64,000 nt of DNA. Origin: Escherichia phage pEC-M719-6WT.2. Under the pieces are notes generated by a model, which saw only the letters and a list, made by a program, of their open reading frames with translations, did no database searches and was not told the DNA's origin. The stretch lies in the sequence record OQ845958.1. One strand, 5' to 3'. The position numbers and the translations under genes were made by a program. Numbering within the stretch: position 1 is the stretch's first letter; every line of letters begins with the position of its first letter. Positions 1,687 to 49,175 of the stretch are shown in pieces.

Positions 1687-2631
1687 ATGAATTTAGATTT
1701 TTTACTCCCTGAAGAAGACCGTCAAAAAGATGGTTTTCTGTTACTCGATTTTAGCCAGCTTATCATGGCAGCAGCCTTCCAGGAATTCGGCAAAGACGCA
1801 GGCTTTCCGAAAGTAACAACTGCAATGACCAGACATCTGGTTCTGAACTCTATCAGAAAAAACATTGTACAGTTTAAAAAGCTCGGTTATACAGTCCCAA
1901 TTATTTGTGTTGATAATTCGAAGAATGGTTATTGGCGACGCACGAAATCTTATTATTATAAGAAAAACCGTGCAAAAGCTCGTGAAGAGTCACAATTTGA
2001 TTGGGAAGGCCTACATGCTGCCATGCACATTATCATTGATGAAATGGAAAAACATATGCCTTACATCGTGATGAATATGGATAAAATTGAGGCTGACGAC
2101 CATATTGCAGTATTAACGAAGTTGCTCACTGGTCTCGGGCATCCGGTTATGATTGTTTCTTCGGATGGCGACTTTACCCAGTTACATAAATTCCCTGGGG
2201 TAAAACAATGGTCACCGATGCAGAAAAAATATGTCAAAACTAAATCAGGCGATGCTCTTATGGATTGCGTGACAAAGGTTGTTAAAGGTGACAAAAAAGA
2301 TAACGTGTCAAGCATCAAGGTTCGTGGTGATTTTTATTACACTCGTGAAGAAGGTGAACGCACTCCACCGACCCGCTCTGCTGAGCTTGAACAAATTGCA
2401 CTCAACTATTACGACCATGACGTTTTGAAAACGCTTTTAACAGAAGAGCAATATAATAGATTCTGTGAAAACCAATTGTTGATTGATATGGACTTTATCC
2501 CAACGGAAATATCTGCTTCAATCTTAGAACGATATAATAACTACGTTATCCCAGCCAAAAGTAAAGTTTATCCTTACTTTGTTAAGTCTGGTCTGTCTAA
2601 ACTAACTGCAAACATTGCTGAATTTTATTAA
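1687..2631 (+). CDS. rnh: RNase H (5'-3' exonuclease/flap endonuclease)
   Basis: 314 aa; motifs GYWRRxxxYYYKKNRxKAREES and SSDGDFTQLHK match T4 RNase H from memory; synteny 34-rnh-dsbA-33-59-32. Confidence 0.9.
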   Translation: MNLDFLLPEEDRQKDGFLLLDFSQLIMAAAFQEFGKDAGFPKVTTAMTRHLVLNSIRKNIVQFKKLGYTVPIICVDNSKNGYWRRTKSYYYKKNRAKAREESQFDWEGLHAAMHIIIDEMEKHMPYIVMNMDKIEADDHIAVLTKLLTGLGHPVMIVSSDGDFTQLHKFPGVKQWSPMQKKYVKTKSGDALMDCVTKVVKGDKKDNVSSIKVRGDFYYTREEGERTPPTRSAELEQIALNYYDHDVLKTLLTEEQYNRFCENQLLIDMDFIPTEISASILERYNNYVIPAKSKVYPYFVKSGLSKLTANIAEFY

Positions 2632-2639
2632 GGTATATT

Positions 2640-2909
2640 ATGAAAGAGAAAAAAGTGAAAGTTGAATTTTGTCCTGATACTCATGGTGCTGAACTGGCCA
2701 AGCTGATTAAAGCTGCTTCCGATACCAAATTAAAAATGGAAGCATATGCAGACGAAATTAAAGACCTTAAAGATAAGGCAAAAACTGAATTAGGCGTTGA
2801 CGGTAAGATGTTCAATACACAGCTCGGCCTGTATCATAAAGGCACTCGTGAACGTTTTGAAGATGAAAAAACCGAAGCTGTGGAGCTCTATGATGTCCTC
2901 TTTAGTTAA
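2640..2909 (+). CDS. dsbA: dsDNA-binding late-transcription protein DsbA
   Basis: 89 aa, same length and position as T4 dsbA (between rnh and 33); basic/acidic small protein. Confidence 0.6.
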   Translation: MKEKKVKVEFCPDTHGAELAKLIKAASDTKLKMEAYADEIKDLKDKAKTELGVDGKMFNTQLGLYHKGTRERFEDEKTEAVELYDVLFS

Positions 2910-3183
2910 TTTTGATACACAGAAAACTGAATCGCCTTCCGGGGCGATTAGTAAGCAGCAAAACGGGCTTGATATTGAAGCCATGGTTGAGTCAACTGAA
3001 ATGTCTTATCTGGAAGCTGCGACTGCCTGGTTGGAAGAACGTGGAATTCCTGAAGGCAATTTTGCACGATACATTCCTGCGGGAATCATTGATAAGATTA
3101 TGAATGAAGCATATGATGATAACCTGCTTCGCCCAAGTATGTCTCGTACACAGAAAACTAATACGCTGGACTTTTTGTTATGA
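2890..3183 (+). CDS. 33: late-transcription accessory protein gp33 (start taken at internal ATG; ORF-track frame begins 2797)
   Basis: Position between dsbA and 59 as in T4; N-terminal extension in the ORF track overlaps dsbA and is probably not translated. Confidence 0.55.
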   Translation: MMSSLVNFDTQKTESPSGAISKQQNGLDIEAMVESTEMSYLEAATAWLEERGIPEGNFARYIPAGIIDKIMNEAYDDNLLRPSMSRTQKTNTLDFLL

Positions 3184-3848
3184 TTACGATTCGCATGCCT
3201 CCAAATAACAACCGATACATAAATGGTAAATCAGTATATCAACTGTACTTATCCATCAAACAGCATTTTTCGGGTCGTTATGATATTATCAAATATAACT
3301 GGACCATGCGAATCTCCGATAGTGCTTATCAAAAACGTCGCGATAAGTATTTTTTCGAAAAGCTTAGTGATAAGTACACTCTCAAAGAATTAACGTTAAT
3401 ATTCATGTCAAACCTGGTCGCGAACCAGGATGCATGGATAGGTGATATAAGCGATGCTGATGCTCTGATATTTTATCGAGAATACATTGGCAGACTTAAA
3501 AGAATTAAACAAGTATACGAAGATGATATAAAGAATATCTATTACTTCAGTAAGAAAGTCGAAGTCAAATCGCTTCAAGAGATTTTCGAGTATAATACTA
3601 AAGTAAACACAAGTTATATTTTCAAACTTCTCCAATCGAATGTTATCTCATTTGAAACGTTTTGTTTGCTTGATTCATTTTTAGATATTATAAATAAACA
3701 TGATGAGCAGACTAACGACTTGGTTTGGGAAAAGTATTCAACCAAACTAAATGCATATAAGAAAATCTTAAATATAGATTCTCTTGAAGCTCGTAAATTG
3801 TTCATCGAGACCGTTAAAAACTGTCAAATAACGCTTCAAGCACTTTGA
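3180..3848 (+). CDS. 59: helicase loader gp59
   Basis: 222 aa; strong similarity to T4 gp59 from memory (YNWxMRxSDxAYQKRRDKYFFxKLS, LVANQDAWIGDISDADAL). Confidence 0.9.
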   Translation: MITIRMPPNNNRYINGKSVYQLYLSIKQHFSGRYDIIKYNWTMRISDSAYQKRRDKYFFEKLSDKYTLKELTLIFMSNLVANQDAWIGDISDADALIFYREYIGRLKRIKQVYEDDIKNIYYFSKKVEVKSLQEIFEYNTKVNTSYIFKLLQSNVISFETFCLLDSFLDIINKHDEQTNDLVWEKYSTKLNAYKKILNIDSLEARKLFIETVKNCQITLQAL

Positions 3849-3908
3849 AGTATAATTAATACGTAATCAAAACAACTGCTAAAAATCAAATAATCTAAGG
3901 AAAATCAT

Positions 3909-4820
3909 ATGTCTATGTTTAAACGTAAAAACCCTGCTGACCTGGCTGCTTCCCTTAACGCTCTGAAAGGTGGTTCCGGTTTCTCTTCTGACGATAAAAA
4001 AGAATGGAAACTGAAAGATACTGATGGCGTCGGCTCTGCGGTTATTCGTTTCCTGCCTTCCAAAAATGAAGAAAATCCATCTCCGTTCATCAAGCTCGTT
4101 AACCACGGCTTTAAAAATGGCGGTCAATGGTATATTGAAAACTGTACTTCTACTCACGGCGACTATGAAAACTGTCCTGTGTGTGCGTACATGAATAAGA
4201 ATGACCTGTACAATACAAACGAATCCGAATATCGTAAACTGAAGCGTAATACTTCTTACTGGGCTAACATCCTGGTCATTAAAGACCCTGCTGTTCCGTC
4301 TAACGAAGGCCAAGTATTCAAATATCGCTTCGGCAAGAAAATCATGGACAAAATTAACCAGATGGTTGAAGTCGATGTTGACATGGGCGAAACAGCTATT
4401 GATGTAACTTGTCCTTTTGAAGGTGCAAACTTTGTACTGAAATCTAAACTGGTTTCCGGTTATAAAAACTACGATGATTCCAAATTCATGAACCAGTCTG
4501 AAATCGCTGGTATCAATGATGAAGCATTCCAGAAAAAACTTTGGGACGAAATGTCTGACCTGAATGAATTGCTGGTGTTTAAATCCCTTGAAGAGAATCA
4601 GAAGAAATTCTCTAAAGTAATGGGTACGGCTGCTCTTGGCGGTGCTGCTTCTAAAGCCGCTGCACAAGCTGATAAACTGGGCGCTGACCTGGACGATTTC
4701 GATAAAGATATGGAAGACTTCACTTCCAGCAAACCTGCTAAGTCTGAACGCACTGCGACTGCTCCAAGCACTCCAGAGCCTTCCGATGATGGTCTTGACG
4801 ACCTTCTGGCTGGCCTTTAA
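3909..4820 (+). CDS. 32: single-stranded DNA-binding protein gp32
   Basis: 303 aa; FLPSKN, LVNHGFK, YWANILV and acidic C-terminus match T4 gp32 from memory. Confidence 0.97.
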
Positions 4821-4824
4821 TATA

Positions 4825-4853
4825 AGGGGACCTTCGGGTCCCTTTTTTATTTT
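4825..4853 (+). terminator. intrinsic terminator (GGGACC-UUCG-GGUCCC hairpin + U-tract)
   Basis: ggggaccttcgggtccc followed by ttttttatttt immediately after the gene 32 stop. Confidence 0.7.
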
Positions 4854-4859
4854 CAAAAA

Positions 4860-4895
4860 GTAGTGTACAAGTCCTTTGAGCTAAGGCATAATGAT
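4860..4895 (+). promoter_or_regulatory. sigma70-like early promoter cassette (-35 GTGTACAA, -10 CATAAT)
   Basis: tagtgtacaa, 17 nt spacer, cataat; the same cassette recurs upstream of several small ORFs (6335, 14378, 15925, 22154, 46373). Confidence 0.5.
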
Positions 4896-4930
4896 TCCAT
4901 CAACTACTGATAACAACTGAGGAAATAAAA

Positions 4931-5293
4931 ATGGAAATCGGCAAAAAATATGAGTTCAATCCACATCGTATTAAATCTTTCATTGATATTAGTTCATCGA
5001 ATGCTAGTATGGTCGACATCATCCAAGAAAATGGCGGTTGGTTTGAAGTTAAATCAATATCAAGTGCAGACGGCTATGATTATGTAACCGAAATAATTTG
5101 TGCTAATGGTGCAATCTATAATGATGATGGCATGGGTGATGATTATTTTGAACTTAGTGAAGAAGAGTTTTATTGCTTCCGAGAATACTCCAATTATGCA
5201 AAAACACCTTCAGGGGCGGTTTCTATTAATTGTGTTGTGGATGCTAATAACGTCGACCAAATCATTGAACTTCTACAAAAAGCTTTCAAATAA
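4931..5293 (+). CDS. hypothetical early protein (paralog-family member)
   Basis: 120 aa with GAGGAAATAAAA ribosome-binding site; shares GK(K/F)Y...F(I/V)(D/A) and DYFEL...EF motifs with ORFs 5642-6073 and 18508-19050. Confidence 0.55.
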   Translation: MEIGKKYEFNPHRIKSFIDISSSNASMVDIIQENGGWFEVKSISSADGYDYVTEIICANGAIYNDDGMGDDYFELSEEEFYCFREYSNYAKTPSGAVSINCVVDANNVDQIIELLQKAFK

Positions 5294-5355
5294 CAGTTTA
5301 CAACAGGTCTATGGTTGAGATATTATAGACCTATCAACTACATGAGGAAAATAAA

Positions 5356-5583
5356 ATGGCTAAGGTTAATATTGATATCGTTGATTTTGAATACACTTAC
5401 GAAGTTATTCGTAATCGTTATCCTTCTTTGAGTATGACTTACATTAAAGATACTGTATTCTTTGGTATTCAAATTGAAGTCCAAGGTCCTCTTGAAGACA
5501 TTACCCGCTTTATGCAAAATGAATATTGTGATGGTATGTACCCCGAAGACACTAAATTTTATATGAATTTGATTGAAGCTTAG
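5356..5583 (+). CDS. hypothetical protein
   Basis: 75-aa ORF preceded by GAGGAAAATAAA ribosome-binding site. Confidence 0.45.
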
Positions 5584-5641
5584 TATACAAACCAATGGGA
5601 ACATGCTAATATGTTCCCTCAACCAAAATGAGGAAATTAAA

Positions 5642-6073
5642 ATGGAAACTGGTAAATTTTACGTATTAGACCCCGCTGCCAAAAAACAATTCATCGCTGA
5701 TAGTCCTGATGACAATTCGTGCATGGTCAGGTTGATGGAACAACATGGCAATTCCTTCAAAGTCCTGGATATGTGTTATATTGAAGGTGATTATTTTGTT
5801 GAAAAAGTTGAAATGAAAGATGGCACCATCCTGAATAGTATGGGTGGTGCTGATGAGTACTTTGAACTCGCTGGATGGGAATTCTGTCACTTCCTGGAAG
5901 TTGATGGCGATGCACCTGTTGATACCCAAACCATTCATGTGCAGGTAAATCACAAAAATGCGGCAGAAGTTGATGGCGATGCACCTGTTGATACCCAAAC
6001 CATTCATGTGCAGGTAAATCATAAAAATGCCGCAGAAGTCATTGCACTGATTAAAGCAACTTTTGGGGTCTAA
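5642..6073 (+). CDS. hypothetical protein carrying an internal 23-aa tandem duplication (ORF-track frame starts 5573)
   Basis: Internal ATG with GAGGAAA ribosome-binding site; contains EVDGDAPVDTQTIHVQVNHKNAA twice in tandem. Confidence 0.55.
   Translation: METGKFYVLDPAAKKQFIADSPDDNSCMVRLMEQHGNSFKVLDMCYIEGDYFVEKVEMKDGTILNSMGGADEYFELAGWEFCHFLEVDGDAPVDTQTIHVQVNHKNAAEVDGDAPVDTQTIHVQVNHKNAAEVIALIKATFGV
5897..6034 (+). repeat. 69-bp in-frame tandem duplication (2 copies, about 2 mismatches)
   Basis: gaagttgatggcgatgcacctgttgatacccaaaccattcatgtgcaggtaaatca(c/t)aaaaatgc(g/c)gca repeated head-to-tail. Confidence 0.9.
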
Positions 6074-6329
6074 TATGACTAAAGATGATTTCCTGGATGC
6101 AGTGGAAAAAGCCAGTGAACAATTTGAAGTGATGGGTGTGCGTTTGCATAAAGACAGAAATTATGGTCTGGATGTTCAAACCTACTCATTATGGCTTGTG
6201 GGTGAGCACAGCCTTGCAACCAATCTTGTTATGGGTGTAGATACATATCCTTTATTAGTTAAGTTCAGAAGTATGGAAAAAGCCACTAAGGAAATGATTA
6301 AACTTGGCAAATGGCTTGATAAAATTTAA
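6063..6329 (+). CDS. hypothetical protein
   Basis: 88-aa ORF overlapping the previous stop; coding-like composition. Confidence 0.45.
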   Translation: MGSNMTKDDFLDAVEKASEQFEVMGVRLHKDRNYGLDVQTYSLWLVGEHSLATNLVMGVDTYPLLVKFRSMEKATKEMIKLGKWLDKI

Positions 6330-6334
6330 AAAGT

Positions 6335-6368
6335 AGTGTACAACCAAATGGGGCTATGACATAATGGT
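6335..6368 (+). promoter_or_regulatory. early promoter cassette (GTGTACAA ... CATAAT)
   Basis: aaagtagtgtacaa ... cataatggtcccatactgag; near-identical to the cassettes at 4860 and 15925. Confidence 0.5.
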
Positions 6369-6404
6369 CCCATACTGAGCTACCAAATAAAACTGGAGAA
6401 TAAA

Positions 6405-6644
6405 ATGAAATTACAACGTGAAAGCATCAAAGATTCAGAAGTTAAAGGCAAATGGTACTTTACAATCCAGGGTAACAATCCAGAAGCTCTGGAAAAAGCT
6501 GAAGAAACTTTATGCGCGATGGGTTGGAAAGATGAGTGCGATGGTTGTCCTCTTTATGAAGATGGTAGCTCATCTGGTTTCTGGATTCATCACTCTGACG
6601 TTGACCAATTTAAAGCTGACTGGAAAGTTGCCAAGAAAGCGTGA
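6405..6644 (+). CDS. hypothetical protein
   Basis: 79-aa ORF with GGAGAATAAA ribosome-binding site downstream of early promoter cassette. Confidence 0.5.
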   Translation: MKLQRESIKDSEVKGKWYFTIQGNNPEALEKAEETLCAMGWKDECDGCPLYEDGSSSGFWIHHSDVDQFKADWKVAKKA

Positions 6645-6654
6645 GGAAAATATA

Positions 6655-8430
<1,776 letters not shown>

Positions 8431-8431
<1 letters not shown>

Positions 8432-48356: not shown

Positions 48357-49175
48357 TTAAGAAATTCGTGATGCTGCGAGAGCAGACAAGTCCGCGAAGG
48401 ACAGGGTAGGCTTGGCGCCTTTTTCTTCAACTGCTTCTGAAATGTAATTCAGTGCCGCAGCATCGTCTACATTTTTATTTATAGCGGCTTCGGTGATTGG
48501 TTTGCCGGTGGGTTCTACCTGACCTTTAACCATTTCAACGATAGCGCCAATTTTGGTACCGAATGCATCAGAGTATTCCATGCCTTCTACCAGAGAACCA
48601 ACTTTTTCTTTTTGAGATTCAGTCAGGTCTTTAGTCGCTTCAGTCAACGCAACTTCACGTTGGACATAATTGATATAAGCATCACGCTTAGCAACTTCTT
48701 CGAACAGATTAGCGGTTTCTTCTTTCTGTTCAGCCAGTTCTTCCTGCATTTCTGCAACAACATCGACAGATTCTTCTGGAACAACAACGTTGTGCTCAAC
48801 GAACAGTTCTTTCATGCCGGTGAACATGGATTCGAACAGGTCAGCTTTAATGCCACGGTCGACAGCCAGTTTATTTTCAGCGAGCCATTCTTTAGCAACG
48901 TGGTCCAGGAATTTAGCTGCAGATTCTTTCAGTTTTTTCTCTGCTTTTTCGTCGGCTTCTTCTTTATTCTTTTCGACTTCTTCTTCAGCTTTTTCAGCGA
49001 TGGCGTGAATGTGAGATTCTGCCAGTTTGATGGCGTGTTGCTTGACGGTAGCTTCGAATACAGTGCCGAAGGTAGCTTTCGCTTCCGGGGACAAATTAAC
49101 TGATTCGAAAATACTATCGAGAGCAACGGAAGCATCGATATTCTGAGCTTCAGAAATGAGTTGTTCTTTAAGCAT
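48357..49175 (-). CDS. 22: prohead core scaffolding protein gp22
   Basis: 272 aa, highly acidic coiled-coil protein; synteny 20-67-68-21-22-23. Confidence 0.85.
   Translation of the reverse strand: MLKEQLISEAQNIDASVALDSIFESVNLSPEAKATFGTVFEATVKQHAIKLAESHIHAIAEKAEEEVEKNKEEADEKAEKKLKESAAKFLDHVAKEWLAENKLAVDRGIKADLFESMFTGMKELFVEHNVVVPEESVDVVAEMQEELAEQKEETANLFEEVAKRDAYINYVQREVALTEATKDLTESQKEKVGSLVEGMEYSDAFGTKIGAIVEMVKGQVEPTGKPITEAAINKNVDDAAALNYISEAVEEKGAKPTLSFADLSALAASRIS

Follow-up and report, generated by a model that had tools for sequence, protein, structure and literature searches.

A 69-nt in-frame tandem duplication in an Frd.2-family paralog of a T4-like Escherichia phage, probably recent and tolerated

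The gene 32-frd interval contains two Frd.2-family genes

The DNA analyzed here, which we refer to as the window, is a stretch of 64,000 nt from Escherichia phage pEC-M719-6WT.2 (OQ845958.1; accession given in PMC11769469). Exact matches to the consecutive accessions WMU95645 to WMU95654 of this phage were obtained for 6 proteins of the window, and no other source contained the dihydrofolate reductase sequence. The gene of interest is an ORF at positions 5642 to 6073 on the plus strand, stop codon included, which encodes 143 amino acids. It sits in the interval between gene 32 and frd of a T4-like Gaprivervirus, an arrangement common to EAWsc9, P8, UPEC07, JS98, and T4. The surrounding genes encode a gp32 homolog (3909 to 4820), a T4 Frd.2 ortholog (4931 to 5293, plus strand), Frd.3 (5356 to 5583), a small ORF product (6075 to 6329), Frd.1/DUF5417 (6405 to 6644), dihydrofolate reductase (frd, 6993 to 7574), and thymidylate synthase (td, 7571 to 8431). 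Directly after gene 32, at 4824 to 4845, lies a strong hairpin that resembles an intrinsic terminator, with the sequence AAGGGGACCTTCGGGTCCCTTT and a T-run behind it.

The ORF opens with an ATG codon at 5642 downstream of a GAGGA Shine-Dalgarno sequence and ends with a TAA stop codon at 6071 to 6073. The protein recorded for the same phage as WMU95648.1 (P0083, 156 amino acids) is the translation of 5603 to 6073 from an upstream ATG at 5603, but the start at 5642 is favored by the Shine-Dalgarno sequence and by the homologs, all of which start at the same METGK.

The encoded protein matched the Pfam family PF03197 (FRD2) with 114.6 bits (cutoff 29, E 3.5e-33), in two separate stretches because of the duplication described below, and phrog_622 with an E value of 5.6e-33. 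The family-invariant residues Y7, N25, F39, E80, F84, N129, and F141, which occupy columns invariant over 34 sequences including distant representatives, were all present. The identity to T4 Frd.2 (NP_049852) was 31% (E 2e-16), whereas the single-copy, 120 amino acid product of the ORF at 4931 to 5293 was 78% identical to T4 Frd.2 (E 1e-72; PF03197 E 1.5e-35). The ORF at 5642 to 6073 was therefore rejected as the T4 frd.2 ortholog and is considered to be a second, divergent paralog of the JS98 frd.2a type. A search of PDB sequences with this protein identified no relative.

The two paralogs in the window were arranged in the order frd.2 (T4-type), frd.3, frd.2 (second type), and in JS98 the order was frd.2a (second type), frd.2b (T4-type), orf, frd.3 (2515 to 3273 in the JS98 locus numbering), while T4 contains a single frd.2 gene. 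We also noted several doubtful labels in the records. The Frd.2 paralog is called "endonuclease VII" in P8 and ESCO10 (2845 to 3207 in the P8 locus numbering), Frd.3 is called "ssDNA binding protein" in P8 (2557 to 2784), and the ORF upstream of frd in EAWsc9 (3857 to 4198 in its locus numbering, corresponding to 6655 to 6996 in the window) is labeled "PemK/MazF family toxin," although the window ORF at 6655 to 6996 gave no significant Pfam match.

A 69-nt unit is duplicated in the second Frd.2-family gene

Tandem Repeats Finder identified an array at 5897 to 6039 with a period of 69 nt, 2.1 copies, 97% matches, no indels, and a score of 272. It was the only array in the window with a period longer than 21 nt, all others having periods of at most 21 nt and scores of at most 53. 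Direct reading of the sequence placed copy 1 at 5897 to 5965 (residues 86 to 108) and copy 2 at 5966 to 6034 (residues 109 to 131), each 69 nt long and on the plus strand. The array extended rightward into a partial third copy of 5 nt, GAAGT, at 6035 to 6039 on the plus strand, which is the same microhomology that opens each of the 2 copies and the likely site of misalignment.

The 69-nt unit begins in frame 0 of the ORF. The 2 copies differed at 2 positions, 5953 versus 6022 (C and T, giving CAC and CAT for His) and 5962 versus 6031 (G and C, giving GCG and GCC for Ala). Both mismatches were located at third codon positions and were synonymous, and copies 1 and 2 thus both encode EVDGDAPVDTQTIHVQVNHKNAA. 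According to our own estimate, the chance of a 67 of 69 match between adjacent 69-mers in a sequence of 64 kb is below 1e-30. A sequence-only reading of the window had described 2 head-to-tail 69-bp copies with 2 mismatches in this ORF and an in-frame duplication of a 23-residue segment; all of its coordinates and counts were correct, and the segment is indeed duplicated in frame. An antisense ORF at 5666 to 6022 was dismissed as an unsupported by-product of the repeat. Elsewhere in the window, short imperfect tandem repeats with periods of 9, 12, and 21 nt and scores of 31 to 53 were clustered at 48934 to 48998.

The duplication is found in two closely related phages

The nearest record in the phage collection was that of EAWsc9 (Gaprivervirus), with 97.9% identity over 25 kb. 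The 432-nt ORF was also present in EAWsc9, with matching breakpoints and 2 identical copies of the unit, and the protein that it encodes there was identical to that of the window. Across the ORF, the 2 phages differed only at positions 5953 and 6031, which are sites of the mismatches between the copies in the window. Among the 63 phage records that contained the unit, EAWsc9 was the only one to match the junction between copies 1 and 2 in one piece, and in the alignment P8 and UPEC07 showed a gap of 69 nt against the window and EAWsc9. The ORFs in P8, UPEC07, MN01, CJ20, RZ, DK-13, VR20, and JS98 were single-copy and 363 to 372 nt long, as were 7 IMG/VR loci of 363 to 369 nt.

The orthologs MN01_00251 (QIN95629), UPEC07 QUL77493, vB_YenM_P8 XAO54587, and JS98 frd.2a (AAU29214) represent the same gene in the same neighborhood and are 88% to 93% identical to the window protein outside the extra unit. 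They share with it the N-terminal domain, the linker motif EVDGDAP, the strand TQTIHVQV, and the helix EVIALIKATF, but consist of 120 to 123 amino acids and contain a single unit (69 or 72 nt), as compared to 143 amino acids and 2 units in the window.

The duplication was not recovered from the larger collections. The exact junction pattern was absent from IMG/VR and JGI metagenome contigs, and its single match in GTDB genomes, to a Porphyromonadaceae MAG, was due to chance, as the sequences were not alike outside the pattern. The ORF was also not found in complete E. coli assemblies. The 32 homolog clusters identified among 5.8 billion proteins were all 118 to 124 amino acids long, and their listed members were at most 125 amino acids except for 2 calls from upstream start codons; the apparent length outlier P0136 (142 amino acids) likewise merely reflects an upstream start call. 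About 30 distant single-domain representatives, which a profile search recovered from 1.84 billion proteins, were 112 to 138 amino acids long and had no internal duplication. An exact look-up of the 143-residue form in a collection of 15 billion proteins found no entry, and the 156-residue form present there, WMU95648.1, is from pEC-M719-6WT.2 itself and does not constitute independent evidence.

In summary of copy numbers, which the sequence-only reading had proposed to check in related isolates, there were 2 copies in EAWsc9 and one in every other relative examined, that is, 62 phage records, 7 IMG/VR loci, 32 protein clusters, and about 30 distant representatives. Since 2 copies with identical breakpoints were found only in the window and EAWsc9, the duplication has a single origin. 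The suggestion that the site is a hotspot of replication slippage found no support, since there is one origin only, the copy number is just 1 or 2, and no other duplication was seen in this gene among the surveyed relatives.

Origin and age of the duplication

The single-copy alleles indicate how the duplication may have arisen. In UPEC07 and P8 the unit is bracketed as CTG-GAAGTT...GCG-GAAGTT, and the direct repeat at the ends of the unit is GAAGTTG in MN01 and JS98 and GAAGT in CJ20, RZ, and DK-13. These direct repeats (GAAGT, GGAAGTT, or GAAGTTG) are separated by 69 or 72 nt. The head-to-tail copies without a spacer, the presence of a single-copy allele in close relatives, and the short direct repeat that flanks the unduplicated unit are all as expected for slippage or a microhomology-guided event. 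Head-to-tail duplications that end in a microhomology of 5 to 7 nt are classical products of slipped mispairing or microhomology-guided unequal exchange. In T4 and other genomes, spontaneous tandem duplications and deletions occur at short direct repeats by slipped mispairing or microhomology-mediated illegitimate recombination. These duplications are likewise head-to-tail, without a spacer and with breakpoints in the direct repeat; unlike in those cases, what is seen here is the product and not the event. The other half of the earlier suggestion, replication slippage as such, fits the anatomy, since the unit in single-copy alleles is flanked precisely on either side by a 5- to 7-nt direct repeat, GAAGT(T).

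In the scenario that we favor, the single-copy ancestor carried the GAAGT(T) direct repeat at both ends of the 69-nt segment, and a nascent strand or recombination intermediate would have misaligned between the 2 microhomologies during replication so that the segment was copied twice, as judged from the product. Two identical copies would thereby have formed before the window and EAWsc9 lineages split, followed by 2 point changes on the window lineage. The differences between the window and EAWsc9 correspond exactly to the 2 mismatches between the copies, which makes duplication followed by point changes the simplest history.

Alternatively, the array could have been generated by unequal homologous or microhomology-guided exchange between co-infecting phage genomes with different alleles, rather than by intramolecular slippage. 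T4-like phages recombine heavily and the region is mosaic. Furthermore, the end of copy 1 in the window (CAC...GCG GCA) matches the MN01/JS98 allele, and copy 2 with its 3' flank (CAT...GCC GCA GAA GTC ATT GCA CTG) is exactly the CJ20 allele. However, the copies in EAWsc9 are identical (CAT...GCG in both) and differ from the window only at 2 sites, for which identical copies followed by 2 point changes at already polymorphic sites is the simpler account. We regard exchange between different alleles as rather unlikely. Slippage followed by substitutions and exchange would each require 2 events, and the sequences cannot decide between these 2 histories. More generally, nothing distinguishes slippage from unequal exchange between 2 genomes, and slippage is probably the mechanism as judged from the end product.

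Returning to the proposed duplication before the split of the 2 lineages, the age of the event can be assessed from the surrounding divergence. The window and EAWsc9 differed at 121 of about 6,100 aligned positions around the gene. There were about 30 differences in the preceding 875 nt (4750 to 5625), and only 3 substitutions at 5626 to 6750, which covers the duplicated gene, the ORF at 6075 to 6329, and frd.1. The duplication thus lies in a block that was recently shared, probably through recombinational exchange, and its persistence cannot be counted as long-term. The occurrence in both phages may go back to a single recent transfer by recombination instead of long co-inheritance. Two of the 3 differences in the block fell inside the 138-nt array (binomial P of about 0.04 by our own calculation), a weak hint at most, and both variants at 5953 and 6031 also occur as alleles in single-copy relatives. 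The claim that near-identity of the copies reflects a recent event is consistent with these data, since only the window and EAWsc9 carry the duplication, the EAWsc9 copies are identical, and the 1.1-kb block contains 3 differences.

It was also noted that the switch in divergence occurs at an intergenic hairpin, with 7 substitutions and an indel clustered at 5593 to 5627. A perfect palindrome with an 8-bp stem, GGGAACATGCTAATATGTTCCC, is located at 5597 to 5618 between frd.3 and the duplicated paralog, at the boundary of the low-divergence block; it was called terminator-like on the minus strand only.

Predicted structure of the duplicated protein

The 23-residue unit consists of an acidic linker (VDGDAPVD), a strand (TQTIHVQV), and a helix cap (NHKNAA). 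Copy 1 is not followed by a C-terminal helix, whereas copy 2 continues into the conserved helix EVIALIKATFGV and forms with it the intact C-terminal element. The AF2 model of the 143-residue protein had a mean pLDDT of 84.4. The N-terminal domain was modeled with strands at residues 6 to 9, 38 to 47, 50 to 58, 63 to 65, and 84 to 87 and helices within residues 11 to 35 (pLDDT 82 to 95), and the C-terminal helix at residues 130 to 141. Strands were also predicted at residues 96 to 105 in copy 1 and 116 to 125 in copy 2, with a pLDDT of 66 to 81 (66 to 70 for the strand in copy 1). Model confidence in the repeat region was thus low. In this model, mutual pairing of the 2 repeat strands is conceivable. 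The single-copy control from MN01 (pLDDT 88.6) contained no strand at residues 88 to 106, followed by a helix at residues 107 to 118.

The nearest solved folds to the predicted N-terminal barrel were FeoA/DtxR-type SH3-like domains, as is also the case for the GoF/MotB.1/Frd.2 family (Kim et al. 2025, PMC12152347). In that study, T4 Frd.2, GoF, and MotB.1 are described as having an N-terminal five-stranded LSm-like/SH3-like barrel (residues 1 to 88 in Frd.2), a flexible linker, and variable C-terminal parts, and no confident multimer models were obtained (PMC12152347). T4 Frd.2 (NP_049852) resembles the window protein in belonging to PF03197, in its N-terminal beta-barrel, variable linker, and C-terminal strand-helix, and in its location between gene 32 and frd, and the 2 proteins share the C-terminal ending ...N-x-x-E/Q-I-I-x-L-L-x-K-x-F. 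The duplication lies at what corresponds to the "flexible linkers" that join "CTDs of various structures" in these proteins (PMC12152347).

The product of the duplicated gene would accordingly be expected to retain both the predicted SH3/LSm-like barrel at its N-terminus (residues 1 to about 87) and a single intact strand-helix element at its C-terminus, while the connecting segment would lengthen from about 8 residues to about 31 and contain a spare copy of the conserved strand. The second option offered in the sequence-only reading, a modular domain expansion, was not borne out. The unit comprises a linker, one strand, and a helix cap rather than a folding module, copy 1 lacks the helix, and the structure prediction that had been suggested for the repeat unit, here made with AF2 on the whole protein, gave no autonomous structural module.

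Constraint on the gene and tolerance of the insertion

The spacing between F84 and N129 ranged from 15 to 44 residues across the 34 family members, with a median of 23; it was 44 in the duplicated protein and also in the natural 138-residue member P0061. Close relatives differed by one linker codon, which was either absent or TAT, GAT, GCT, or GTT. The range in spacing and the variation in the linker codon place the insertion in the one length-variable part of the protein. The identity to single-copy orthologs outside the inserted copy was 91% to 93%.

The pN/pS ratio was 0.087 for the C-terminal part versus 0.247 for the N-terminal domain, with a pS of 0.275 in the unit. Since the unit holds the most constrained residues, an extra copy could affect function. 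However, the pN/pS values of the duplicated allele against its relatives were 0.13 to 0.29, as compared to a median of 0.17 among the others, and showed no relaxed constraint on the duplicated allele, which by this measure appears to be under ordinary purifying selection. The duplicated allele also had a private E78G substitution at a nearly invariant residue.

Given the variable length of the segment, the spacing matched by a natural member, and the purifying selection, the insertion is most likely tolerated, and probably near-neutral as far as can be judged from sequence comparisons. Taken together, we consider it likely that the repeat is a genuine and recent in-frame duplication of single origin and slippage type, which is tolerated and close to neutral rather than a source of new function.

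A different interpretation is that the allele represents adaptive remodeling, in which the extra linker and strand change the pairing of the C-terminal element, such that a strand-strand contact between molecules might, for instance, become a hairpin within one molecule. The oligomeric state of the protein or its binding to partners would then be altered, and selection would have kept the allele. No part of the protein is more conserved than the duplicated segment, and the single-copy AF2 model has no strand there, whereas both copies form strands when duplicated, consistent with mutual pairing. The ORF has remained intact with only synonymous differences between the 2 isolates, and a perfect 69-nt tandem repeat is expected to be easily lost in a highly recombinogenic T4-like phage. 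In addition, T4 frd.2 was scored as a fitness gene with CRISPRi-ART (PMC11879866). Against this, the duplication is known from only 2 closely related isolates in which the block differs at 3 of about 1,100 positions, so that its persistence has been short, and the repeat was modeled with a low pLDDT. Amber mutants of T4 frd.2 show normal plating (PMC12152347), and the ORF at 5642 to 6073 is not the T4 frd.2 ortholog. We therefore find it improbable that the duplication is adaptive.

A specific form of this idea is that TQTIHVQV normally pairs between Frd.2 molecules or with a partner, and that the duplication would supply the partner strand in cis. We hold this to be quite doubtful. If true, the product would be an early phage protein that has become self-satisfied, monomeric, or re-targeted and that selection maintains in the lineage, and a possible gain would be escape from a host factor that recognizes the exposed strand.

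Two further explanations compare poorly with a tolerated coding duplication. The first is that the unit is a DNA or RNA element within the coding region, such as a promoter, an operator, or a structured RNA. A 24-nt core, GTTGATACCCAAACCATTCATGTG (5918 to 5941 and 5987 to 6010), was invariant at the DNA level in all of the 10 alleles compared while flanking codons varied synonymously, although a sample of 10 alleles is too small to separate constraint from chance. No sigma-70-like promoter or terminator-like site was found inside 5897 to 6034 (T4 middle and late promoter consensus sequences in the unit were inspected by eye only), the RNA fold of 5880 to 6060 was no better than shuffles (z -0.24), and the plentiful synonymous variation elsewhere in the unit (pS 0.275) points to constraint at the protein level, which makes such an element very improbable. 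The second, that the genome truly has one copy, is equally remote: although tandem repeats can be affected by mis-assembly or polishing errors, an independently sequenced phage with 2% divergence has the same duplication and breakpoints, collapse or expansion of a repeat would not create the 2 differences between the window copies, the reading frame is preserved, and typical short reads are longer than the 138-nt array. The worry that the repeat is an assembly artefact, which is unlikely, is largely removed by the independent record of EAWsc9 and by the differences between the window copies.

Function of the Frd.2 family and significance of the length variant

From their predicted structures, T4 Frd.2, GoF, and MotB.1 have been proposed to act in RNA or gene expression early in infection (PMC12152347), with experimental support for an RNA-related role only from the GoF gain-of-function mutant. 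The reports on the dispensability of frd.2 in T4 are in conflict, as no other T4 gene of unknown function was scored as "Fit" in the CRISPRi-ART screen (PMC11879866), whereas the amber mutant had a normal efficiency of plating (PMC12152347). One possible reason is that dCas13d has polar or translational-coupling effects on downstream genes. All of these functional data come from genes other than the paralog at 5642 to 6073.

The duplicated protein adds a new length variant to a known family, one that the records do not describe as such, and is not a new kind of element. What stands out in the DNA as a striking repeat is thus a genuine strain-level length variant of an uncharacterized family rather than an artefact, a mobile element, or a new system. 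As a natural insertion mutant, it indicates that the segment between the barrel and the strand-helix tolerates an insertion of 23 residues that includes a decoy of the most conserved motif. Together, the 2 alleles, with 143 and 120 amino acids, could serve as a natural probe of the binding partner of this motif.

Finally, we noted that positions 35 to 67 of the Frd.2 profile, which cover the beta-hairpin (about residues 35 to 67 of the window protein), gave repeated matches in giant proteins in the library of 1.84 billion proteins. One of these, P0053, consists of 4,421 amino acids and was matched in 15 stretches, and others include P0063, P0065, P0066, and P0072. These matches may represent unrelated hairpin repeats or a distant shared motif.
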